Assembly: GCA_934476235.1 (NCBI GenBank)
Contig: CAKSNL010000004.1
Location: 110,582-174,581, forward strand
Reading direction: 5' to 3'
Source of the DNA: an uncultured Clostridia bacterium
GTDB lineage: Bacteria > Bacillota > Clostridia > CAKSNL01 > HGM11501
Length of the DNA stretch: 64,000 nucleotides
Within the stretch, counting starts at the first letter, position 1, and every line of letters starts with the position of its first letter. The position numbers and the translations under genes were made by a program. Below the pieces are notes generated by a model. It did not search any database. It was given only the letters and a program-made list of their open reading frames with translations, and was not told the DNA's origin. Positions 15,241-63,885 of this stretch are shown piece by piece.

Positions 15241-15402
15241 ATTCTCACTCCTTGTTTGTTCTTCGCTTTTTTTCTTTATCGCACGCATTTATTCAGCGCC
15301 GCGAAGGGCGGCTTTTGCCGTGTGAAAATTATATCGCGCGCGAAGGCATTTTATAAATGCTTTTCGCGAAGTATATAATTTTCAGCGAGCGGCTAAATCC
15401 AG

Positions 15403-15740
15403 CCTCTTTGCGGGTGCATTATAATTCAAACAATAATGCCTTCAAGCCGGCGTAAAAATTTTTGATTGGTGCGAAAACTCTTGCTCGCAAGAAAGTTTTC
15501 GTATCATATCAAAATAAGCGAGTCCGCGCTTTCCCGGCGGGCGTATTATAATGCGAGCAATAAATGCTTGCTTGCAACGGGTTTTTGCGGTGCATTGGAA
15601 AGTCCGCGCTCTTTGCGGGCGTATTATAATGTGAGCGAAAACTCTTGCCTGCACGGGCTCTTTGCGATGCATTGGAAAGTCCGCGCTCTTTGCGGGCGTA
15701 TTATAATGCGAGCAATAAATGCTTGCTTGCAAGGGCATTT
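15403..15740. repeat. tandem direct repeat array, about 4.5 copies of a 77-bp unit
   Basis: Units start near 15403, 15538, 15616 and 15693, with a partial copy near 15840. Conserved core CGCGCTCTTTGCGGGCGTATTATAATGCGAGC plus a variable hairpin. Confidence 0.8.
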
Positions 15741-15951
15741 TTGCGAAGCATTAGAAAAGCGAATGCGCGGCGGGACCCGTCGCGCCCGGGGGCTTTTAAG
15801 CCACCGGTGCTATTGCTCTTTTTAAGAGCAATAGCTTATGAGCGTATTATACCACACCGTTTCCAAAAAAACAAGTGCTTAAGTAACTTTAGCCTCTCCC
15901 GGTCGATCCATGCAGCTTTTTGCCGAATCTTCCGGATACAATAAAACCGCC

Positions 15952-51696: not shown

Positions 51697-52614
51697 GTGA
51701 AATATAATACGATCGTAATAGGCGGCGGAGCCGCCGGGCTTGACGCAGCGGCTGCGTGCGCAAGACTCGGGCTTTCCGTGCTCCTGCTCGAAGCGATGTA
51801 TACGGGCGGAATGGCGCTCAAGATAAAAAACGTGCCGGACTTTCCCGGCTTTCCGGACGGGATAAGCGGCGAGGAGCTGACCGACCGCATGGAAAAGGCG
51901 GCTGTCGCTTCCGGAGTCCGCATACTGCACGAACGGGTGACGGATATGGAGCTTTCGGAAAAAACGAAAAGCATAACGACCGACAAGGGCTCCTACACGT
52001 CGGATACGGTGATAATCGCCTCTGGGGCAAGAATCCGCGAAATGGGACTTGAAAACGAGCGCGCGCTTACCGGGCTCGGCATCTTTCACGCGGTCGCGGA
52101 GGGAAGAAGGGCAATCGAAGGGAAAAACGCGGCGGTCTGGGGCTCCGGAGAAGAGGCATGCGAATACGCGCTGGAGCTTGCCGAGCTCTGTATAGCGGTG
52201 TATCTCATCTGTCCGGAGGAGCATTTGAGAGCCGGAAAACGGCTGATCGAGAAAATAAGGAATACTCCGAAAATCAAGCTTTACGAAAATTCGCTGATTG
52301 CCGGGATCAATGAGGGTATGTTCCTTTTGGAGGCCATGACGGTGGTCGGTAAGGAAACGATGGAGATCGACTCCATGCCGGTCGAGGCAGTGTTTGTCGC
52401 GCCGGAGCTGGAACCGGACAGCGACGTGTTTTTGGGGCATGTGAGGATGACGGACGACGGCGCGGTCATCGTAAATGAGAAAATGGAAACGGAAACAGAA
52501 GGCGTTTATGCGGTCGGCGCGGTGAGAGAGGGCTCTGCACTGTCACTGGTGGATGCCGCGGCGGACGCGCGCCGTGCCGCGCTCTCGGTAAACGGCTATA
52601 TAATAGGAAAGTAA
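51697..52614 (+). CDS. FAD-dependent pyridine nucleotide-disulfide oxidoreductase (thioredoxin reductase-like)
   Basis: GGGAAG FAD site and a second GxGxxA (VWGSGEEA). GTG start after GGGAGG. Confidence 0.7.
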   Translation: MKYNTIVIGGGAAGLDAAAACARLGLSVLLLEAMYTGGMALKIKNVPDFPGFPDGISGEELTDRMEKAAVASGVRILHERVTDMELSEKTKSITTDKGSYTSDTVIIASGARIREMGLENERALTGLGIFHAVAEGRRAIEGKNAAVWGSGEEACEYALELAELCIAVYLICPEEHLRAGKRLIEKIRNTPKIKLYENSLIAGINEGMFLLEAMTVVGKETMEIDSMPVEAVFVAPELEPDSDVFLGHVRMTDDGAVIVNEKMETETEGVYAVGAVREGSALSLVDAAADARRAALSVNGYIIGK

Positions 52615-52636
52615 AAAATAAAAGGGCACGCAGACA

Positions 52637-52950
52637 GTGCTCCGTAGGGAGGATGTCCACATCCTCCCTTTTTGCACTCATTACGTTAGTGCACCGTAGG
52701 GGATGGCGTCCCCGACATCCTGTTTGTTTTATCTTGCACCCGCTTTCGTTAGTGCACCCGTAGGGGAGGATGCCCTCATCCTCCCGCCTTTTTATGTGCC
52801 CGCCCATTACGCCCATGTACCGTAGGGTCGATTCACGAATCGACCGCCTGGGGTTGCATGCATGTTTTTCACGATTCTCCCGAAAAATCCTCCCTTCGCC
52901 TTCGGCTCTTCCCTCCTTTAGCAAGGAGGGCATTAAAGGCTCTATTTCAT
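52637..52950. repeat. modular palindromic interspersed repeats, locus A
   Basis: Four successive CCGTAGGG + GC-palindrome + T-run units at 63-64-bp spacing, then X (CCCGAAAAATCCTCCC) and Y (CCTCCTTTAGCAAGGAGGGCATTAAAGGCTC) modules shared with loci B and C. Confidence 0.75.
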
Positions 52951-53094
52951 ACCCGCACCGCCCCGGCTTTAACCGCTGCAAAATAAGTTTCTTCATCTCC
53001 CCGCCATTGTAACAATCGGTCATTTATGTTGCGGCGCACCTCGCTTCTGTAATGTAACAAAACGGTGACAAATGAAGAAAAATTGCAAAAATGC

Positions 53095-53238
53095 TTGACA
53101 AATTATGAAAAAAATAATATTATAAAATGGTTAGGGCGAAAAAAGACTGCGTTTTTTTGCAGCAATATGATTCCAATTTTACAGTTGTGTAACAACTCGG
53201 TAAATAGCATTGACTTATAAATTGGTCAATGCTATAAT
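53095..53238 (+). promoter_or_regulatory. two tandem consensus promoters of the S-layer gene
   Basis: P1 is TTGACA, 17-bp spacer, TATTAT (53095-53123). P2 is TTGACT, 17-bp spacer, TGcTATAAT (53210-53238). A 5' UTR of about 125 nt follows. Confidence 0.65.
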
Positions 53239-53364
53239 GAAGCCATGGTTGGGAGGACCGTATTCGTACGGGCTTTCGATGCGCGGCAGGTAAAAAAGGA
53301 ACCGGCTCGCGGAAAGCGGATTCTTTCGCCAACAAAAAATTTTTTATAAGGAGGAATTGAGGTT

Positions 53365-56358
53365 ATGAAAAATCTCAAGAAAGTTCTCGCACTTGTATTG
53401 GCATGCGCTACTCTCTTCACGATGAGCTCTTTCGCATTTTCGGACGTTGCTGAAGATGCAAGCTATCTTGAAGCTGTAACGATGCTCAGCAAGCTGGGAA
53501 TCATCAACGGTTATGAGGATGGAACCTTCCTTCCTGATAACACAATCACCAGAGCGGAAGCTGCGAAAGTTCTTGTATGCGCTCTTAACGCTGAGGATTC
53601 GGCTAAGGGGATGGCAGATCAGGCACTCTTCACAGATGTTCCCTCGACTCACTGGGCTGCAGGTTATGTAAACTATGCTGCAAACTACGGTATCATCGCT
53701 GGTCGCGGAAACGGCATCTTTGATCCCGAGTCTCCCGTTTCTTACGAGGAAATCGTAAAGATGGTTGTTGCAATGCTTGGTTACACTCCTGTTGCAAACA
53801 TCAAGGGCGGTTATCCCACAGGTTACATTTATGTTGCTAACAACGTAGCTAAGATCACCAAGGGTGCTACCGGCTTAACAGGCGACGCTGCTAAGAGATG
53901 GGTTGTTGCAAGACTTGTATTCAACTCTCTTGAGACAAAGATCATGGAGCCTGAAAAGTGGAGCGCAAGCGATCCCGACTACATCAAGGGTGAGGACACT
54001 CTCTTAAAGGATTACCTTGAGGTTACCAAGGTTGAAGGTATCTTAACATCGACCTTCCTTTCCGAGGACAACTTCCAGGATAAGGAAGACCAGAACGTTA
54101 CTATTCATCTTAACACGATCAACGGCAAGTCAAAGAGAGCTCTCGAGGATGCCGGCGACGGCGACTGGGCTGACAAGATCGACACAGACTACACTGTAGA
54201 CGCTAACGACACATATGCTGAGGATTACCTTGGATACACTGTAACCGCATACGTTAGAGACTTCGACGAAGGTTCTGACGAGCTCGTTGCAATAGCTCCC
54301 AAGGCTAACAAGAACTCTGCTCTTGACGTTGCATTTGACGATTTCGGCAAGGATGACGTTAAAGAGGTTAGCAAGAAGGTTCAGTTCGAATACTATGCAA
54401 GCGTTGACGCTGACGATACAACAACCGGTAAGGTTAACGTAAAGAACGACGTTCCGGTATTCAGAAATGGTAAATACGACAATGGTTATGCTGCTAGCGA
54501 TGTTATCGATTTAATCCAGGGCTATGTTGATGCAGCTAACGACAACGTAATCGACTCTAAGGACAAAGAAGGCTTCATCAGATTCCTTGATAACGACGGC
54601 GACGGATATGCAGATTACCTCTTCGTTGAGACAATCAACGCCGAGTATGTTGTAGACTCCATCACAGCTAAGAGCTACAAGATTAAGGATAAGAAGGATG
54701 ACAAGACAATCACTCTTGATCCTACTGACGATGAGAAGTATGTAAACTTCTACAAGAACGGCGTACAGGTTGAGTTCTCCGCAATCAAAGAGGGTGACAC
54801 TCTTTCTGTAGCATACAACAAGGGCACAAGACTTAACGATGCAAGCGTTGTAAACGTATACATCTCTTCTGAGACAGTTGAGGGCTATGTTTCTACTGCA
54901 TCTGCTAACAAGAACGAGTACAAGATTGACGGTACTGTATATGCTAAGTCTTTCAACTATGACAAGGCTATCTCCAGAACCGATGACGGCGTATTCTATC
55001 TTAACTACAAGAACAGAATTGCTTACAAAGAGGCTGAGACAACTAAGGAAGGCAACTATGCATTCGTACTTGATATAAACAACGATGACAGCTTCTCTGA
55101 CGGAATCAGCTACACTCTTCGTTTCATGAACGAAAAGGGTGAGTGGGTTGACGCTAAGCTTTATGACAAGCTTGCAATCTACGGCAGCGACGGCGGCTCG
55201 ATTGTTAAGTACTCGAACGTTGACGAGATGAACGGTACTGACAGCAAGTCCAAGAAGGCTACAATTGCTGACGCTACTTTGAACTGGTTGAACCTTGACG
55301 GTACAGACCTTAAGCTTGATGTAGCTAAGACTCAGAGAGTATTTAAGTATACACTCAACTCTAACGGTGACATCACAAAGATCACTCTTCCGATTCTTAA
55401 TGACGGTAGCGACAACTACGATAAGTGGGCTGACACTGTTGACGAGGATAACTTCGCAGGCGAAGCTTTCACAGCAACCTACAAAGAGTCTTCCAACAGA
55501 TTCAACGGCATCACCTACAAGGGCGGCGCTGACAAGAACACTGTAATCTTCAAGGTAGATATCGATGATACCGAGACCATTAAGGATGTTACCAAGAAGG
55601 CTGACGTTTCTCTTTCCACCTATGCTATGTTCAAGGATGACACGGAATACAAAGGTTTCGCATATGACTACGGTACAGATTCTTACAAGTGCATGGTTAT
55701 CACCAACGCTGGTAAGAAGATCGACGAAGAGTCCTCTCTCGTAGTAGTTAAGAGCGCAGAGATCGTTTCTGACGGCGATGATGAGTACCTTACAATCGAC
55801 GGTTACATGGACGGTAAGGAAGTTACTCTTGAGTCTGTAGTAGCTGATGATGTTGACATCACAAGCAACGATAAGACCACAACTGCTAAGATAACAACTG
55901 CTGAGGGTCTTGAGGCTGTTGAGTGCGGTGCTATCATAGAGGTTTCTCTTGACGGCGCAGGCAAGGTTGACTCCATCAACGTTCTCTTCACCTTCGAGGA
56001 AGCTGTTTACGGTGATACCGTAGACAACGGCAACCACGAGGACGGCGCAGCTTATTTGTTCGGTGCTATCGTATCTGACAAGGCTACAGGTTCCGGTAAG
56101 GCAATTGACATTGCTGATAAATATAAAGGCACTGTAATCGAGAATATCGCAACTGCAGGCGCTGGCATGAAGGGTAACATCTACTATGTAAAGAACGGCG
56201 CAAGAAAGAACGCGATTTCTGTAGACACCTCTATTGCTGACTATGTTGACTCTATCGATGATTCGACAGGTTCCGGCGATACGGTTTACCTCGCATTTGC
56301 TAAGCTTTATGACGGCGACACTGTTGACGTTGTAGTTTACGATTACGAGATAAAGTAA
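53365..56358 (+). CDS. S-layer protein (N-terminal SLH domains plus large surface domain)
   Basis: Signal peptide; SLH repeats (LSKLGIINGYEDGTFLPDNTITRAEAAKVL); acidic Thr/Asp/Lys-rich body; codon usage distinct from its neighbours. Confidence 0.7.
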   Translation: MKNLKKVLALVLACATLFTMSSFAFSDVAEDASYLEAVTMLSKLGIINGYEDGTFLPDNTITRAEAAKVLVCALNAEDSAKGMADQALFTDVPSTHWAAGYVNYAANYGIIAGRGNGIFDPESPVSYEEIVKMVVAMLGYTPVANIKGGYPTGYIYVANNVAKITKGATGLTGDAAKRWVVARLVFNSLETKIMEPEKWSASDPDYIKGEDTLLKDYLEVTKVEGILTSTFLSEDNFQDKEDQNVTIHLNTINGKSKRALEDAGDGDWADKIDTDYTVDANDTYAEDYLGYTVTAYVRDFDEGSDELVAIAPKANKNSALDVAFDDFGKDDVKEVSKKVQFEYYASVDADDTTTGKVNVKNDVPVFRNGKYDNGYAASDVIDLIQGYVDAANDNVIDSKDKEGFIRFLDNDGDGYADYLFVETINAEYVVDSITAKSYKIKDKKDDKTITLDPTDDEKYVNFYKNGVQVEFSAIKEGDTLSVAYNKGTRLNDASVVNVYISSETVEGYVSTASANKNEYKIDGTVYAKSFNYDKAISRTDDGVFYLNYKNRIAYKEAETTKEGNYAFVLDINNDDSFSDGISYTLRFMNEKGEWVDAKLYDKLAIYGSDGGSIVKYSNVDEMNGTDSKSKKATIADATLNWLNLDGTDLKLDVAKTQRVFKYTLNSNGDITKITLPILNDGSDNYDKWADTVDEDNFAGEAFTATYKESSNRFNGITYKGGADKNTVIFKVDIDDTETIKDVTKKADVSLSTYAMFKDDTEYKGFAYDYGTDSYKCMVITNAGKKIDEESSLVVVKSAEIVSDGDDEYLTIDGYMDGKEVTLESVVADDVDITSNDKTTTAKITTAEGLEAVECGAIIEVSLDGAGKVDSINVLFTFEEAVYGDTVDNGNHEDGAAYLFGAIVSDKATGSGKAIDIADKYKGTVIENIATAGAGMKGNIYYVKNGARKNAISVDTSIADYVDSIDDSTGSGDTVYLAFAKLYDGDTVDVVVYDYEIK

Positions 56359-56386
56359 GAATCTTGTTAAATAAAAAGAACGCAGA

Positions 56387-56413
56387 GCAATCTGCGTTCT
56401 TTTTTGTGCTCCG
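56387..56413 (+). terminator. terminator of the S-layer gene
   Basis: AGAACGCAGA-gcaat-CTGCGTTCT followed by TTTTTT. Confidence 0.75.
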
Positions 56414-56414
56414 C

Positions 56415-57140
56415 ACTCATTACGCCGGCGCGCACCGTAGGGGATGGCTGCGCCGGAAAAGATAATAACAAGGCTCCCTTGCTAAAGGCGTGGCGGAAAA
56501 AGACAACAAAGTCTTTTTCCGTTAGGTGCGAAAAACCGTTCAAGGTTTTGTCGCACGCACTTAAAACCGCAAAGGCGGTTTTAAGCTGGCACGGCATAGC
56601 CGTGACTGAGGGATTTATCGGTGCACCCACGCATTTTACGCACCCTCTTTCCCGGGTCGATGTGGGCATCGCCCCCTACAATTCACCTACTTTCGTTACT
56701 GCACTGTAGGGTCGATTCTGAGAATCGACCGCCCGGGTGTACGCATGTTTTTTCGTGACCCTCCCGAAAAATCCTCCCGCCATTTGCTCCGCAAATGCCA
56801 CCGTCTCGCTGCGGCTCTCCTCGCGCCTTTAGTTCTTGATGAGTCTACCGGACTGCCATTCATTGCCTCGGCGCCGCTACGCTACCTTTAGCTCTTGAGG
56901 GCTCTTAAAGGCTCCTCCTGACGGGGGGCTGTCACCGTAAGGTGACTGAGGGAGAGAATCTTAATTGCGCACCCACCGCGGGTCGCCAAGGATGGCGCCC
57001 CCTACGGATTCCCGCGCATTATGTTAATGCACCCGTAGGGGAGGATGCCTTCATCCTCCCGCCTTATGTTTTGCACCCACTATGCTAATGCACCCATAGG
57101 GTCGATTCATGAATCGACCGCACGGGTGCATCCTTCCCGG
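56415..57140. repeat. modular palindromic interspersed repeats, locus B
   Basis: Copies of the CCGTAGGGG units (both orientations), the GGTCGATTCnnnGAATCGACC palindrome, and the X and Z modules. About 85-90% identical to loci A and C. Confidence 0.75.
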
Positions 57141-57205
57141 CAAAACTCACCTCTCTTAGCGAAAAGAAGGAACAAAGCATGCAAAAAAATTAAAACAAAA
57201 AAACG

Positions 57206-57235
57206 GAACAAGCTTTTGCTTGTTCCGTTTTGTGG
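57206..57235 (-). terminator. terminator after tRNA-Thr
   Basis: Minus strand AACGGAACAAGC-aaaa-GCTTGTTCCGTT followed by TTTTTT. Confidence 0.7.
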
Positions 57236-57242
57236 AGCTATT

Positions 57243-57318
<76 letters not shown>

Positions 57319-60962: not shown

Positions 60963-61958
60963 ATGTATAATGCAAGTGAAAAACGTTACTCAAAGATGAA
61001 ATATGCCCACTCCGGCAAAAGCGGACTTAAATTGCCGAGGGTATCGCTCGGGCTGTGGCATAATTTCGGAAATACCGCTTCTTATGATAATATGAAGGCG
61101 CTGTGCACAACGGCGTTTGACAATGGTATAACCCATTTTGACCTCGCGAATAACTACGGACCCGAACCGGGCAGAGCGGAGATCAATTTCGGGAAAATTC
61201 TGAAGGACAATTTCCTTCCCTACCGTGATGAAATGATAATAAGCACAAAAGCCGGATACGAGATGTGGGACGGGCCCTACGGAAACTGGGGAAGCCGCAA
61301 GTACCTGATCGCCAGCCTTGACCAGAGCTTAAAGAGAATGGACGTTGATTATGTGGATATTTTCTATCACCACAGACCGGACCCGGAAACTCCGCTTGAG
61401 GAAACGATGGGCGCCCTTGACTATGCCGTTAAGAGCGGAAAGGCGCTTTACGCCGGACTTTCCAACTATAACGGAGAGATGATGGAGCGAGCTGCGGAGA
61501 TTCTTTCAGAGCTCAAATGCCCGTTTGTTATAAATCAGAACCGCTATTCGATTTTTGACCGCGCGATTGAGCAGAACGGGCTGAAAAGGAGCGCGGAAAA
61601 GAACGGCAAGGGCATAATCGCATTCAGCCCCCTTGCGCAGGGCACACTTACGGATCGATATCTGAACGGTATCCCGGAGGATAGCCGGATAAAGACGGAC
61701 GGCAGATTTTTAAAGGCTTCCATTTTGACCGAGGAGAGACTATCGGAAATTAAACGGCTTAACGAGCTGGCACACCGCCGCGGGCAGACGCTGGCGGAAA
61801 TGGCGCTCGCCTGGGTGCTTAAGGATAACGCGGTGACAAGCGTTCTTATCGGTGCGTCAAAGCCCGAGCAGATACTTGACAATATCAAGGCGATAAATAA
61901 CACCAACTTTACAGAGGCTGAGCTCCGCGAGATCGATTCGATTTGTGGAATTATATGA
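60963..61958 (+). CDS. aldo/keto reductase (YghZ/L-glyceraldehyde-3-phosphate reductase-like)
   Basis: AKR motifs GLWHNFG, HFDLANNYG and YVDIFYHHRPD. Confidence 0.85.
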   Translation: MYNASEKRYSKMKYAHSGKSGLKLPRVSLGLWHNFGNTASYDNMKALCTTAFDNGITHFDLANNYGPEPGRAEINFGKILKDNFLPYRDEMIISTKAGYEMWDGPYGNWGSRKYLIASLDQSLKRMDVDYVDIFYHHRPDPETPLEETMGALDYAVKSGKALYAGLSNYNGEMMERAAEILSELKCPFVINQNRYSIFDRAIEQNGLKRSAEKNGKGIIAFSPLAQGTLTDRYLNGIPEDSRIKTDGRFLKASILTEERLSEIKRLNELAHRRGQTLAEMALAWVLKDNAVTSVLIGASKPEQILDNIKAINNTNFTEAELREIDSICGII

Positions 61959-62001: not shown

Positions 62002-62220
62002 TTACAGCCTTGCCAAAATTTCCATTCGACGGGCTTTCTGCTCGTCCTCGCTGATATATCCGAGCTCGTAATCCTCGTTTATCAGCTCAAGCTCTTCCTT
62101 TAATGTCAGCGTTCCCTTCTTCTTTTTCCTCCGCAGCGTGAAGTTTATTTGATTTTCTGTTTTTATCTGAGGTTTTATTGTTGTCAGTAACGTTTTACCC
62201 TCTGTCCGGAAGCGCGGCAA
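62002..62220 (-). pseudogene. SHOCT-domain ORF lacking its own ATG/RBS; probably the C-terminal part of a frameshifted PLDc_N-SHOCT gene
   Basis: LKEELELINEDYELGYISEDEQKARRMEIL is SHOCT-like. Reachable only from a TTG with no SD, one frame away from the upstream ORF's stop. Confidence 0.35.
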
Positions 62221-62377
62221 CCAAAATCATGCCAAATATTCCGGTAAAAAATACCCAAAAGCCGTAGCCGTTATCATAGCCTTTGCTTTCTGCAACGCGG
62301 GCAAAATCTATAGCCAGCGCTATCCATAGTATCCAACCTATTATTCCTATAACCCATAATACACCGTTCATTTCCAT
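62195..62377 (-). CDS. PLDc_N-like small membrane protein
   Basis: 60 aa, two TM helices (LWVIGIIGWILWIALAIDFAR...GYGFWVFFTGIFGMILVAALP); strong AGGAGGAAG RBS. Confidence 0.6.
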   Translation of the reverse strand: MEMNGVLWVIGIIGWILWIALAIDFARVAESKGYDNGYGFWVFFTGIFGMILVAALPDRG

Positions 62378-62405: not shown

Positions 62406-62722
62406 ACCACGGAATATACATTACGTGGTCTGGAAAAAAATCAACAAGGATTTTTTTCGGACCGGTTTACGAAAAATATTCAAGTTTTTCGTAAACTATG
62501 TATACAGGAACCGGCAAATGCCGGGTCCGTTCATGCAAAAGACCACGAAAAGAAGACCGATGAAAGCATTTTTTCATCATCGGTCTTAAAACCATGCAAA
62601 AAATAATTTTTGCCGATAAATATTGACATACTTTTCCAAAAGTAGTATAATAAAAGTACCCTAATTTCGCTTTTCGAGGAAAAGGGCTGCATAAAACTAC
62701 CACGTAATGTATATTATGTGGC
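62406..62722. other. candidate invertible DNA switch (inverton): 24-bp inverted repeats flanking a 269-bp promoter-bearing segment
   Basis: IR-L 62406-62429 ACCACGGAATATACATTACGTGGT and IR-R 62699-62722 ACCACGTAATGTATATTATGTGGC are inverted, 21/24 identical. Each has 9-bp arms around a TGTATA-type spacer, like a tyrosine-recombinase core site. Confidence 0.55.
62623..62651 (+). promoter_or_regulatory. consensus sigma-A promoter inside the invertible segment
   Basis: TTGACA, 17-bp spacer, TATAAT. It currently points toward the recombinase gene; after inversion it would read toward the PLDc_N gene. Confidence 0.6.
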
Positions 62723-62731
62723 TTTTTTCTT

Positions 62732-63565
62732 TTATTCCCGCAAAAAGCCGAGCATTTCGATTCTGGAGCGGTGAATCTCCGAAGACTCCGCGGTGTAAAT
62801 GCGTGTGGTGTTCATGCTGACGTGCCCCAGAAGCTCCGAAAGGCGAAGTAAGTCCTTATGCACCTTGTAGTACGTCCGCGCGAAAAGATGGCGGAGGTTG
62901 TGCGGGAACACCTTCTTTTCGGAAACGTTCGCCTTTTTGTAAAGCGCCTTCATGGAGCGCCAGATATAGAACCTGTCAAGCGGTTTCCCCGTTCTCGTTA
63001 TGAACACAGGACCGCTTTTTATATTGTTCTTTTTGGCGTATTTGATCAGCATTTTGCAGAGCTTTCCCGGAAGCAGTACCGTGCGGACTCTGCCCTTTAG
63101 AGCGACCGTCGCGCGGCGCAGCATCAGCGCCTCGCACGTGATAAAGCGGATCTCGGAAACGCGCAGCCCGCAGGAGCATGCCGCCTGCATGAGGAGATAC
63201 AGCCGCTCGCTCTTTTCCTTCGCAGCGGACAAAAGGCGGTTGTACTCCCCCGCCGTCATCTCCCGCTCCTTATCGGCAAAGCTGCTCCGGGAAAATGTAA
63301 GGCTCTTTAATTTTAAATCGTGCCGCCCGCAGAACGTGAAAAATGAGTTAAGCCCCGCAACCGCGGCGTTCACGCTCGCCGGTGCGCGCGTTGCCTTCAT
63401 GCGCTCTTTGTAGCCGACCGCGAGCTCCTTTGTCACCCTTCTCCAGGAGAGGCACTCGGCAAAAAGCCGCACGTCGCGGGCGTATTTTTCAGCGGTAGCC
63501 CTCTCCTTCTCGCGTTTAATAAGGTCGTTTTTGAAATTTTTTATTTTTTCTTCTGTGATAAACAT
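62732..63565 (-). CDS. tyrosine-type site-specific recombinase/integrase
   Basis: Phage-integrase fold: N-terminal SAM-like domain, catalytic R...HxLRH...Y (LRHLFARTY...TTRIYT); GGGGTGAGAGA RBS. Confidence 0.85.
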   Translation of the reverse strand: MFITEEKIKNFKNDLIKREKERATAEKYARDVRLFAECLSWRRVTKELAVGYKERMKATRAPASVNAAVAGLNSFFTFCGRHDLKLKSLTFSRSSFADKEREMTAGEYNRLLSAAKEKSERLYLLMQAACSCGLRVSEIRFITCEALMLRRATVALKGRVRTVLLPGKLCKMLIKYAKKNNIKSGPVFITRTGKPLDRFYIWRSMKALYKKANVSEKKVFPHNLRHLFARTYYKVHKDLLRLSELLGHVSMNTTRIYTAESSEIHRSRIEMLGFLRE

Positions 63566-63639: not shown

Positions 63640-63885
63640 ACGGTGTGTGCGCCGAAAAATCCTCCCGGTTTTTATTGCATAAAAACCACCCTCCTTTAGC
63701 AAGGAGGGCATTTAAAGGCTCCCTTGCTTAAAGGGAGCTGGGTTTTCCGGAGGGAAACTCTGAGGGATTTTTCAATCATTTCCGCTGCGGCTCTCCTCGC
63801 GCCTTTAGTTCTTGATGAGTCCTCCGGACTCGAATTCATTGCCTCAGCGCCGCTTCGCTGCCTTTAGCTCTCGAGGGCTTTAAAT
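63640..63885. repeat. modular palindromic interspersed repeats, locus C
   Basis: X module 63655-72, Y module 63690-63725 and Z module 63787-63880, near-identical to 56805-56895. Confidence 0.75.

Follow-up and report, generated by a model that had tools for sequence, protein, structure and literature searches.

What are the palindrome-rich repeats that fill the spacers on both sides of an S-layer gene in an uncultured Clostridia bacterium, and why do they lie there? The question is raised by a 64,000-nt stretch of DNA (hereafter, the window) that lies within ENA ERZ28613827 scaffold_45, a metagenomic scaffold of 250 kb (Clostridia organism, 47% GC). A first-pass annotation of this stretch had described six modules common to three loci and compared them with BOX/RUP/REP-type elements or with a family of miniature inverted-repeat transposable elements (MITEs). 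We argue below that the three spacers probably contain mosaic clusters resembling bacterial interspersed mosaic elements (BIMEs), composed of repetitive extragenic palindromes (REPs) and companion hairpin modules and seeded by a REP-associated tyrosine transposase (RAYT). What carries this reading is a set of direct observations: the anatomy of tag and hairpin, compensatory variation in the stems, spread across genomes, turnover at one orthologous spacer, and the association of REPs with RAYT genes elsewhere. The clusters are selfish intergenic DNA, common yet unannotated in Oscillospiraceae-like gut bacteria, and have no specific link to the S-layer gene.

Three mosaic repeat clusters

The repeats lie in spacers A (52615-53364) and B (56359-57232), before and after the S-layer gene, and in spacer C (63566-64012), beyond a tyrosine recombinase gene; the clusters themselves span 52637-52945, 56435-57130 and 63651-63879. 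All six modules were found again. When the three spacers were compared by self-BLAST with the entire window, matches arose only among 52.6-52.95, 56.4-57.13 and 63.65-63.88 kb, and repeat finding agreed. Shared cores are 91-100% identical: 91% over 97 nt for module e (56807-56903 vs 63783-63879), 95% over 43 nt for the unit with a GAGGATG stem (52748-52790 vs 57023-57065), 97% over 33 nt for module d (52911-52942 vs 63689-63721), 96% over 25 nt for copies of the TCGATTC unit and 100% over 15-18 nt for copies of module c. The order of modules does vary by locus, and both orientations do occur, the units at 56654-56679 and 56980-57005 being inverted. The regular 63-64-bp spacing proposed for four units of locus A did not hold, as their GTAG heads at 52644, 52696, 52760 and 52822 are 52, 64 and 62 nt apart. 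The hairpin density reported earlier is real: the 737-nt locus B folds with z = -8.3 relative to dinucleotide shuffles. Such a repeat pattern is not a product of chance.

Tandem Repeats Finder, run on 52500-57300, called no tandem array (head-to-tail copies at least 70% alike) and returned only two trivial repeats of 9-10 nt. This is because the units share only tag, frame and hairpin logic, while whole units are too diverged. Loci A and B share a colinear two-unit block (52736-52856 vs 57011-57130), 76% identical overall, with a longest exact run of ~22 nt. In a covariance search of Rfam 15, only tRNAs reached the gathering score, and permissive-threshold matches in the repeats were far under the cut-offs; no Rfam family matches the repeats at either threshold. 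The comparison with known elements in the first-pass annotation stood in one half: the repeats are an interspersed, mosaic, intergenic family of REP/BIME type. The reading as MITEs is not supported, as no terminal inverted repeats delimit a unit of fixed length; neither repeat finding nor inspection by eye revealed bounding inverted repeats, order and number vary, and target-site duplications were not systematically searched. The readable part of the host genome amounts to ~82 kb, i.e., the window plus ~9 kb per side (L179, L181), and no further copies were found in the added flanks.

GTAG-tagged hairpins form the core of the clusters

The modules that were said to match nothing recognisable include a familiar superfamily, since the first two of them are GTAG-tagged REPs. 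The core unit consists of GTAG directly 5' of a GC-rich stem of 8-9 bp, which starts with GG following the tag and is closed by a loop of 3-4 nt. Ten such units are present in the window, in two spacers (A and B). The unit can be written as (T)GCACyC - AyTAyGyTAr - TGCAC(C) - GTAG - stem - loop - stem - (G)CC, and a lineage-specific frame of ~60 nt, TGCACyC-AyTAyGyTAr-TGCACC-GTAGGG-hairpin-CCGCC, surrounds it. By the published rules, a REP has GTAG or GTGG at a distance of 0-2 nt from its basal stem, which is fully paired, 7-20 bp long and closed by a loop of 2-5 nt (PMC6006769; PMC3733652). The window units agree with these rules: nine of ten have GTAG at offset 0-1 and one, at 57096, has ATAG, and stem and loop lengths lie within the stated ranges. 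All of the units are extragenic. As in BIMEs, loci A and B mix REPs with other modules, namely c, d, e, f and g.

Tag and pairing are kept while the stems differ. Five stem types occur among the ten units: GAGGATG (three units), TCGATTC (three), GATGGCG (two, one of them truncated), GCGATG..CATCGAC and GCGCCA..TGGCGAC. One internal G.A mismatch is present in three window units, and both inverted units have theirs at stem position 4. Orientation alternates in locus B, where an inverted unit and a plus-strand unit form two head-to-head pairs with gaps of 26 and 29 nt, and does not alternate in locus A.

The coupling of tag and hairpin was evaluated in a 116-kb lineage sequence set and in a 355-kb set of viral-catalogue contigs. 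In the lineage set, a perfect stem of at least 6 bp starts from base 5 at 17 of 44 GTAGGG sites. Of the other permutations of this hexamer, 28 give 0-5.6%, and TAGGGG, whose letters overlap those of the tag, gives 15%. The viral-catalogue set has the stem at 108 of 174 GTAGGG sites, other permutations reaching at most 1.9% and TAGGGG 47%. The coupling is thus non-random. Among 24 units of the lineage there are 13 distinct stems; head-to-head gaps measure 21-29 nt, while head-to-tail gaps are 32-36 nt in three of four cases and 92 nt in the fourth.

Locus A contains four plus-strand units. Unit A1 (52644-52667), which begins 30 nt past the stop codon of the upstream oxidoreductase gene, reads GTAG + GGAGGATG-tcca-CATCCTCC, followed by C and TTTTT, and judging by this arrangement is probably the intrinsic terminator of that gene. 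A2 (52696-52720) reads GTAGg + GGATGGCG-tccc-CGACATCC with one G.A mismatch and recurs in L105 and, with the loop tcct, beside the RAYT gene P0149 in L176. A3 (52760-52785; GTAG + GGGAGGATG-ccct-CATCCTCCC) runs into the terminator-like GCCTTTTT, and A4 (52822-52845; GTAG + GGTCGATT-cacg-AATCGACC) is of the TCGATTC type. In locus B, the plus-strand unit B1 (56435-56456; CCGTAGGGGATGGC...) is a truncated unit of the A2 type. The inverted, minus-strand B2 (56654-56679; GTAG + GGGGCGATG-ccca-CATCGACCC) stands head-to-head with plus-strand B3 (56706-56730; GTAG + GGTCGATTC-tga-GAATCGACC), and the inverted, minus-strand B4 (56980-57005; GTAG + GGGGCGCCA-tcct-TGGCGACCC) with plus-strand B5 (57035-57060; GTAG + GGGAGGATG-cctt-CATCCTCCC). 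The last unit, B6 (57089-57130, plus strand), is the ATAG variant and has its TCGATTC stem inside an outer stem TGCACCC...GGGTGCA. The suggestion that the repeats act as terminators finds partial backing here: in A1, A3 and B5 a GC hairpin runs into a T-rich tract, and A3 and B5 pass a terminator scan. Some REP units probably double as terminators, as far as their composition tells.

The same REP types accompany RAYT genes elsewhere

A collection of reference genomes was scanned with GTAGGGTCGATTCNNNGAATCGACC. Only five stretches matched, in the gut metagenome-assembled genome (MAG) Clostridia bacterium HGM11501 and in Cloacimonadota, from which it follows that the genome of the window is itself absent from this collection. 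On the Cloacimonadota contig L001 (also L122), the stop codon of a 162-aa RAYT gene overlaps the GTAG of this very REP, GTAGGGTCGATTC..GAATCGACC; the encoded protein reaches 98.4 bits against the NCBIfam model NF047646 (REP-associated tyrosine transposase; cutoff 80). The same or a near-identical REP lies inside the RAYT coding sequences of L051, L066, L137, L170, L171, L173 and L174. In L176, a REP pair is situated 3' of RAYT P0149, and its member GTAGGGGATGGCGtcctCGACATCCC equals the window unit at 52696 save for one loop base and an absent final C. With TCGATTC beside or inside RAYT genes and GATGGCG flanking that of L176, two of the five window stem types are tied to RAYT genes elsewhere.

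Group 1 RAYTs have been noted in Clostridia (PMC5581495). A search with a RAYT hidden Markov model revealed further RAYT genes in metagenome loci, including Clostridia-type contigs, and a protein search seeded with the L051 RAYT returned 401 homologues, among them several named from Clostridia bacterium MAGs and one of Oscillospiraceae bacterium 44-34. No Clostridia proteins were among the matches listed when the Cloacimonadota RAYT served as the query. A profile made from the RAYT alignment gave no confirmed matches in viral contigs, and a tblastn search of plasmids with RAYT queries did not detect any Vescimonas RAYT on pMM35_01 (see below). The RAYT genes stand singly amid housekeeping genes, e.g., after uvrB or alaS, or in the gap that separates a CLC channel gene from the his operon. 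We also considered the window units as debris of RAYT pseudogenes and rejected this, as no window open reading frame (ORF) of at least 50 aa resembles a RAYT and the flanks of the units are unlike RAYT coding sequence.

A GTAG-hairpin is present within the coding sequence at 11 of 12 RAYT loci, 115-130 nt from the start in ten, and a second one farther downstream at eight of 12, inverted in seven. Loci with such in-gene REPs are L051 313-499, L163 10130-10332, L170 10115-10295, L173 3359-3554, L174 6895-7090, L171 1624-2237 and L176 4819-5309; the L171 gene is closely followed on its 3' side by a further tandem of three REPs. We found no description of REP pairs inside RAYT coding sequences in the literature searched.

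Some features of the encoded proteins can be added. The in-gene REPs usually form an inverted pair bracketing the HUH motif and encode peptides such as VGSIHEST / RSIRESTL or VGADIIRP / GRMISAPT, with the general forms VGxxxxxP and GRxxxAPT. Across 120 RAYT homologues, both REP-encoded segments are highly variable in an otherwise conserved protein.

Companion modules follow the same logic

Modules c, d, d2-f and e, which accompany the REPs, share their logic, i.e., conserved single-stranded tags around hairpins. The stems co-vary in c, f and e; those of d and d2 are nearly invariant; and g is a block of three hairpins. All copies listed here lie on the plus strand. Module c is made of CGAAAAATCCTCCC and a small hairpin that differs after each copy (GCCttcGGC, GCCATTTGCtccGCAAATGCC or GGTTTTTATtgcATAAAAACC): GCCttcGGC at 52881-52906, GCCATTTGC-tcc-GCAAATGCC at 56765-56799 and GGTTTTTAT-tgc-ATAAAAACC at 63653-63687. 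Module d (52911-52942) combines the hairpin CCTCCTT-tagc-AAGGAGG with GCATTAAAGGCTC, where this copy ends, lacking the d2-f part; the complete copy is at 63689-63721. The d2-f part is found at 63717-63767 as GGCTCCCTT-gctt-AAAGGGAGC, TG, a variable hairpin and CTGAGGGA, and a fragment of d2, GGCTCCCTTGCT, at 56472-56483. Two copies of f occur in locus B, one as GCTG + GCACGGC-ata-GCCGTGA + CTGAGGGA (56585-56613) and the other as GCTG + TCACC-gtaa-GGTGA + CTGAGGGA (56928-56953).

Module e (97 nt) has a variable hairpin between conserved flanks, GAGTC-taccg-GACT(g) at 56807-56903 and GAGTCC-tcc-GGACTC at 63783-63879, and its first half is kept in L075; over three copies the hairpin takes the forms GAGTC/GACT, GAGTCC/GGACTC and GACAGCC/GGaCTGTC. 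The hairpins of module g (56497-56585) are AAAAAGAC..GTCTTTTT, GTGCGAAAAACC..GGTTTTGTCGCAC and TTAAAACCGC..GCGGTTTTAA; the block is inverted in the relative L105.

Modules c, d, d2 and f together make a composite of ~140 nt, which is conserved in locus C of the window and in L002, L101, L054 and L105. Its last part, GGCTCCCTT-nnnn-AAGGGAGC, TG, a variable hairpin and CTGAGGG, is also present in the unrelated viral-catalogue contigs L013, L021 and L039. Covariation of the f hairpin was measured on 12 aligned copies of GGCTCCCTT..AAGGGAGCTG-hairpin-CTGAGGG, chosen by a pattern that does not demand pairing. Both sides change at seven of seven pairs, with pairing kept in 93.8% of cells. The hairpin has a covariation score of 0.494; slid partners reach at most 0.113, and none of 500 shuffles attains 0.494.

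Distribution and turnover of the clusters

The modules recur in the related species L002-L004, L054, L075, L101, L105 and L123. In relatives they fill the spacer after an aldo-keto-reductase gene and the one after a cysteine-synthase-like gene. The former holds 750-800 nt of modules in L002/L101 and L105, with an identical start followed by whole-unit differences. In the window, the recombinase segment sits at this post-aldo-keto-reductase position, and locus C lies beyond it. HGM11501 is 83% identical in DNA to the window across the aldo-keto-reductase gene.

A BLAST search of locus B against plasmid records matched pMM35_01 of Vescimonas fastidiosa MM35, an 861-kb replicon carrying rpmH and rnpA. 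Three spacers within 12 kb of this replicon contain GTAGGG units of several stems, inverted pairs and GGCCCCCTTGCCTAAAGGGGGCTG-hairpin-CTGGGGG. The Vescimonas clusters occupy the exoIII-metG and jag-tatD spacers, among others, and no annotation exists at any of them. A specific tie of the repeats to the S-layer gene, as first proposed, is not supported, because in relatives and in Vescimonas the same modules stand beside unrelated genes.

The spread of single units is wider still. A metagenome scan with a variable loop returned at least 120 stretches, and since the contigs with the TCGATTC REP span 30-61% GC, this REP type crosses phyla. The TCGATTC unit had no matches in the viral catalogue; the inverted unit type, GATGTGGGCATCGSCCCCTAC, to which B2 belongs, has 36 stretches there, usually arrayed with other GTAGGG hairpins.

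The 24-nt REP GTAGGGTCGATTCAYGAATCGACC is identical in metagenome contigs (L043-L162) of 30-61% GC from termite gut and other sources, and some of its copies are double-headed palindromes (GTAGGG...CCCTAC). Such identity suggests either horizontal spread of a RAYT/REP pair or strong constraint by the enzyme. Full-text literature searches with the repeat sequences or the spurious peptides that they encode led only to unrelated papers, and in a limited search we found no description of these Clostridia elements.

Origin of the clusters

We propose the following scenario. The units, as single-stranded DNA hairpins, would be recognised by an HUH/Y1 enzyme of RAYT type whose gene lies elsewhere in the genome; this enzyme would cut and rejoin them beside GTAG and seed copies into tolerant spacers. 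The clusters would then grow and shuffle via local duplication, deletion and recombination between modules, which would account for the mosaic arrangement and for the fast turnover observed when one spacer is compared across related species. Units co-oriented with transcription may act secondarily as hairpin terminators or 3'-end protectors. That the clusters surround the S-layer gene is best explained by the large size of the spacers at this locus and not by a gene-specific function.

Several points weigh against RAYT seeding. Within ~82 kb of the host genome, the repeats are limited to three spacers in 11 kb, and they may be less numerous than classical REPs; single stem types are represented by few copies, and the HGM11501 MAG, in a single-pattern scan, has five TCGATTC units on three contigs. 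Perfect palindromes can be maintained by template-switch repair without selection. Most window units are arranged head-to-tail, and such dimers are reported to be rare in classical REP families (PMC3733652). No link of modules c, d, d2-f, e and g to a RAYT appeared in the data examined. Finally, hmmsearch detected no RAYT in the window, in L006, in the ~18 kb of flank (L179, L181) or in ~50 kb of close relatives. This absence says little, since one gene is expected per genome and only ~150 kb was sampled; still, with no RAYT found near, mobilisation by a RAYT in this genome is something we infer rather than show. A bolder reading of the same material can be put forward only tentatively. The companion modules (c, d, d2-f, e and g), which are common in Oscillospiraceae and have freely co-varying stems, may represent another, undescribed class of tagged hairpins (the clearest being GGCTCCCTT..AAGGGAGCTG-hairpin-CTGAGGG) and could have their own mobilising enzyme or RNA function. 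The REPs may belong to a RAYT class that keeps an inverted cognate REP pair in frame inside its gene; the gene would then act as the master copy of each stem type.

It is rather unlikely that the repeats are, instead, RNA-level elements selected for the S-layer operon, i.e., stacks of terminators, insulators or 3'-UTR (untranslated region) stabilisers that shield a highly expressed gene from read-through. Such a role would fit the orientation of eight of ten REP units and of every c, d, e and f module of loci A and B, which point with plus-strand gene transcription, as well as the several units built as a GC hairpin and a T-run, the closing pairs of the f hairpin, which are G.U-compatible on the plus strand only, and the L075 cluster, which also lies 3' of an SLH protein gene. 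However, modules are found in divergent promoter spacers too (locus C; exoIII-metG of Vescimonas), both orientations occur, the neighbouring genes in relatives are unrelated, the REP type is present inside RAYT coding sequences, and the S-layer gene has a canonical terminator of its own at 56373-56405, upstream of locus B. An RNA-level role can, moreover, coexist with the REP explanation as a secondary use. We consider it doubtful that the repeats are non-autonomous derivatives of insertion sequences (ISs), either MITEs or palindrome-associated elements of IS200/IS605 type, moved by an IS transposase and not by a RAYT. TnpA of IS200/IS605 does recognise ends via subterminal hairpins and short conserved guide sequences, IS200-type Y1 transposases are reported to be well represented in Clostridia (PMC6006769), and the two ends of the ~140-nt composite from c to f, ATCCTCCCT and, in reverse complement, CTGAGGGAT, resemble each other weakly. 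Yet neither a fixed-length unit with terminal inverted repeats nor a full-length IS with these ends was found, no IS200 or TnpB gene lies near the clusters examined, and module order varies; GTAG is a RAYT hallmark, and an identical REP abuts RAYT genes.

Two further explanations have very little in their favour. That the direct repeats serve as recombination substrates for replacement or deletion of the S-layer gene, a version of the cassette exchange suggested in the first-pass annotation, is highly improbable: the two-unit block does bracket the gene in direct orientation, its copies 4275 nt apart, but it is only 76% identical over ~120 nt, with the short exact run given above, neither a silent S-layer cassette nor a second copy of the gene came to light in the window and its flanks, the clusters also occur away from S-layer loci, and the nearby recombinase has its own inverted-repeat-flanked promoter segment, separate from the repeats. 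Least credible of all is a purely local segmental duplication without a wider family. The confinement of the repeats to an 11-kb stretch would agree with it, but it is refuted by the occurrence of the same modules in several related species, in Vescimonas fastidiosa and on many metagenomic contigs. We retain RAYT-seeded REP/BIME clusters as the preferred explanation of the three spacers.

Genomic surroundings of the clusters

Cluster A follows a pyridine-nucleotide disulphide oxidoreductase (Pyr_redox_2) gene (51697-52614, plus strand) and precedes the gene of an SLH-domain (S-layer) protein of 997 aa (53365-56358, plus strand), which is present in identical form in three assemblies. The twin promoters noted earlier upstream of the latter are indeed there: two strong sigma-70-like promoters at 53095-53123 and 53210-53238, with 11 of 12 matches each, leave a leader of ~125-240 nt. 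A tRNA-Thr gene (57233-57308, minus strand) lies 3' of locus B and is followed by genes of a GH4 glycosidase, a copper-amine-oxidase-N-domain protein and an aldo-keto reductase (60963-61958).

The tyrosine recombinase gene beside locus C (62732-63565, minus strand) has directly at its 3' side a pair of 23-nt inverted repeats (62407-62429 / 62699-62721, 91% complementary) that enclose 269 nt with a perfect TTGACA-17-TATAAT promoter (62623-62651). Such inverted repeats and a promoter next to a recombinase look like an invertible promoter switch. L105 keeps the arrangement of recombinase and inverted repeats and has small AT-rich ORFs, resembling membrane proteins, just outside the left repeat and pointing away; in the window, an ORF of 60 aa (62195-62377, minus strand) lies outside the left repeat. 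The relative L002 has neither the recombinase nor this segment, and in L180, from another assembly, the contig ends just past the recombinase gene. We rejected this recombinase as an enzyme acting on the hairpin repeats: it comes with inverted repeats of its own, 23 nt long and placed around a promoter, and L002 retains the hairpin repeats without it.

Several ORFs of 100-185 aa fall largely or wholly inside the clusters: 56367-56669 (minus strand) and 56404-56709 (plus strand), which are wholly repeat sequence, and 52466-53023 (minus strand), which is a called gene of 185 residues without Pfam matches in the source assembly (L006 9102-9659). They are probably spurious calls generated by the repeats. 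Repeat finding also pointed to three to four diverged copies of a unit with a period of 77-78 nt at 15395-15741, each with a promoter-like TTGCGGGCGTATTATAAT and a short hairpin.

Significance and comparison with known systems

These elements fill many of the larger spacers in Oscillospiraceae and their relatives, which are important gut bacteria, and are unannotated in RefSeq, where nothing is recorded at the Vescimonas clusters. Their recognition as REP/BIME elements gives annotators a masking rule against spurious small ORF calls and extends the GTAG-REP/RAYT system into Clostridia. They could be used as markers for strain typing and assembly breaks, point to possible roles in termination and mRNA stability beside highly expressed surface-protein genes, and, with many stem variants under one tag, offer a natural data set for the evolution of RAYT specificity. 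The REP units themselves belong to a known kind; the parts most likely to be new are the companion modules and the in-frame REP pairs of RAYT genes.

Among intergenic repeats of Firmicutes, BOX, RUP and SPRITE of Streptococcus pneumoniae are likewise hairpin-rich and assembled from short modules whose order and number vary. RUP is regarded as a MITE that depends on IS630 and has terminal inverted repeats. To our knowledge, BOX and RUP have no GTAG tag and no sequence similarity to the window repeats. The ends of IS200/IS605 elements provide a parallel in the proposed recognition of a single-stranded hairpin and a short guide sequence by an HUH/Y1 enzyme, but here neither an IS body nor defined left and right ends were found, and GTAG serves as the tag. 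With Rho-independent terminators, A1, A3 and B5 share the GC hairpin and T-rich tract, while the conserved unpaired tags, the arrays, the non-transcribed orientation and the presence in promoter spacers and inside coding sequences set the units apart. The inverted pairs with a short spacer at 56654-56730, at 56980-57060 and beside the L176 RAYT are reminiscent of the REP doublets (REPINs) of Pseudomonas fluorescens; most window units, however, are singlets or tandem, and the doublet as a mobile unit has no support here.

The closest counterpart is the REP/BIME and RAYT (TnpA-REP) system of Enterobacteria and Pseudomonas. Common to both are the GTAG directly 5' of a GC-rich imperfect palindrome, the conserved mismatch in some stems, the extragenic location, the clusters that mix REPs with other short motifs, the two orientations with head-to-head pairs, the same REP type beside RAYT genes and, probably, side-roles as terminators or mRNA stabilisers. 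A survey of 2013 found GTAG repeats only in Proteobacteria, Cyanobacteria, Chloroflexi and PVC (Planctomycetes-Verrucomicrobia-Chlamydiae) bacteria (PMC3733652), while the host here is a Clostridia organism (Oscillospiraceae-like), in whose readable sequence the cognate RAYT was not located. Classical REPs come as one or two high-copy types, but here there are many stem types with few copies each, and the window units are mostly head-to-tail, with a 5' frame of ~30 nt. Finally, the RAYTs concerned here differ from those of classical REP systems in having pairs of REPs within the sequence that encodes them.

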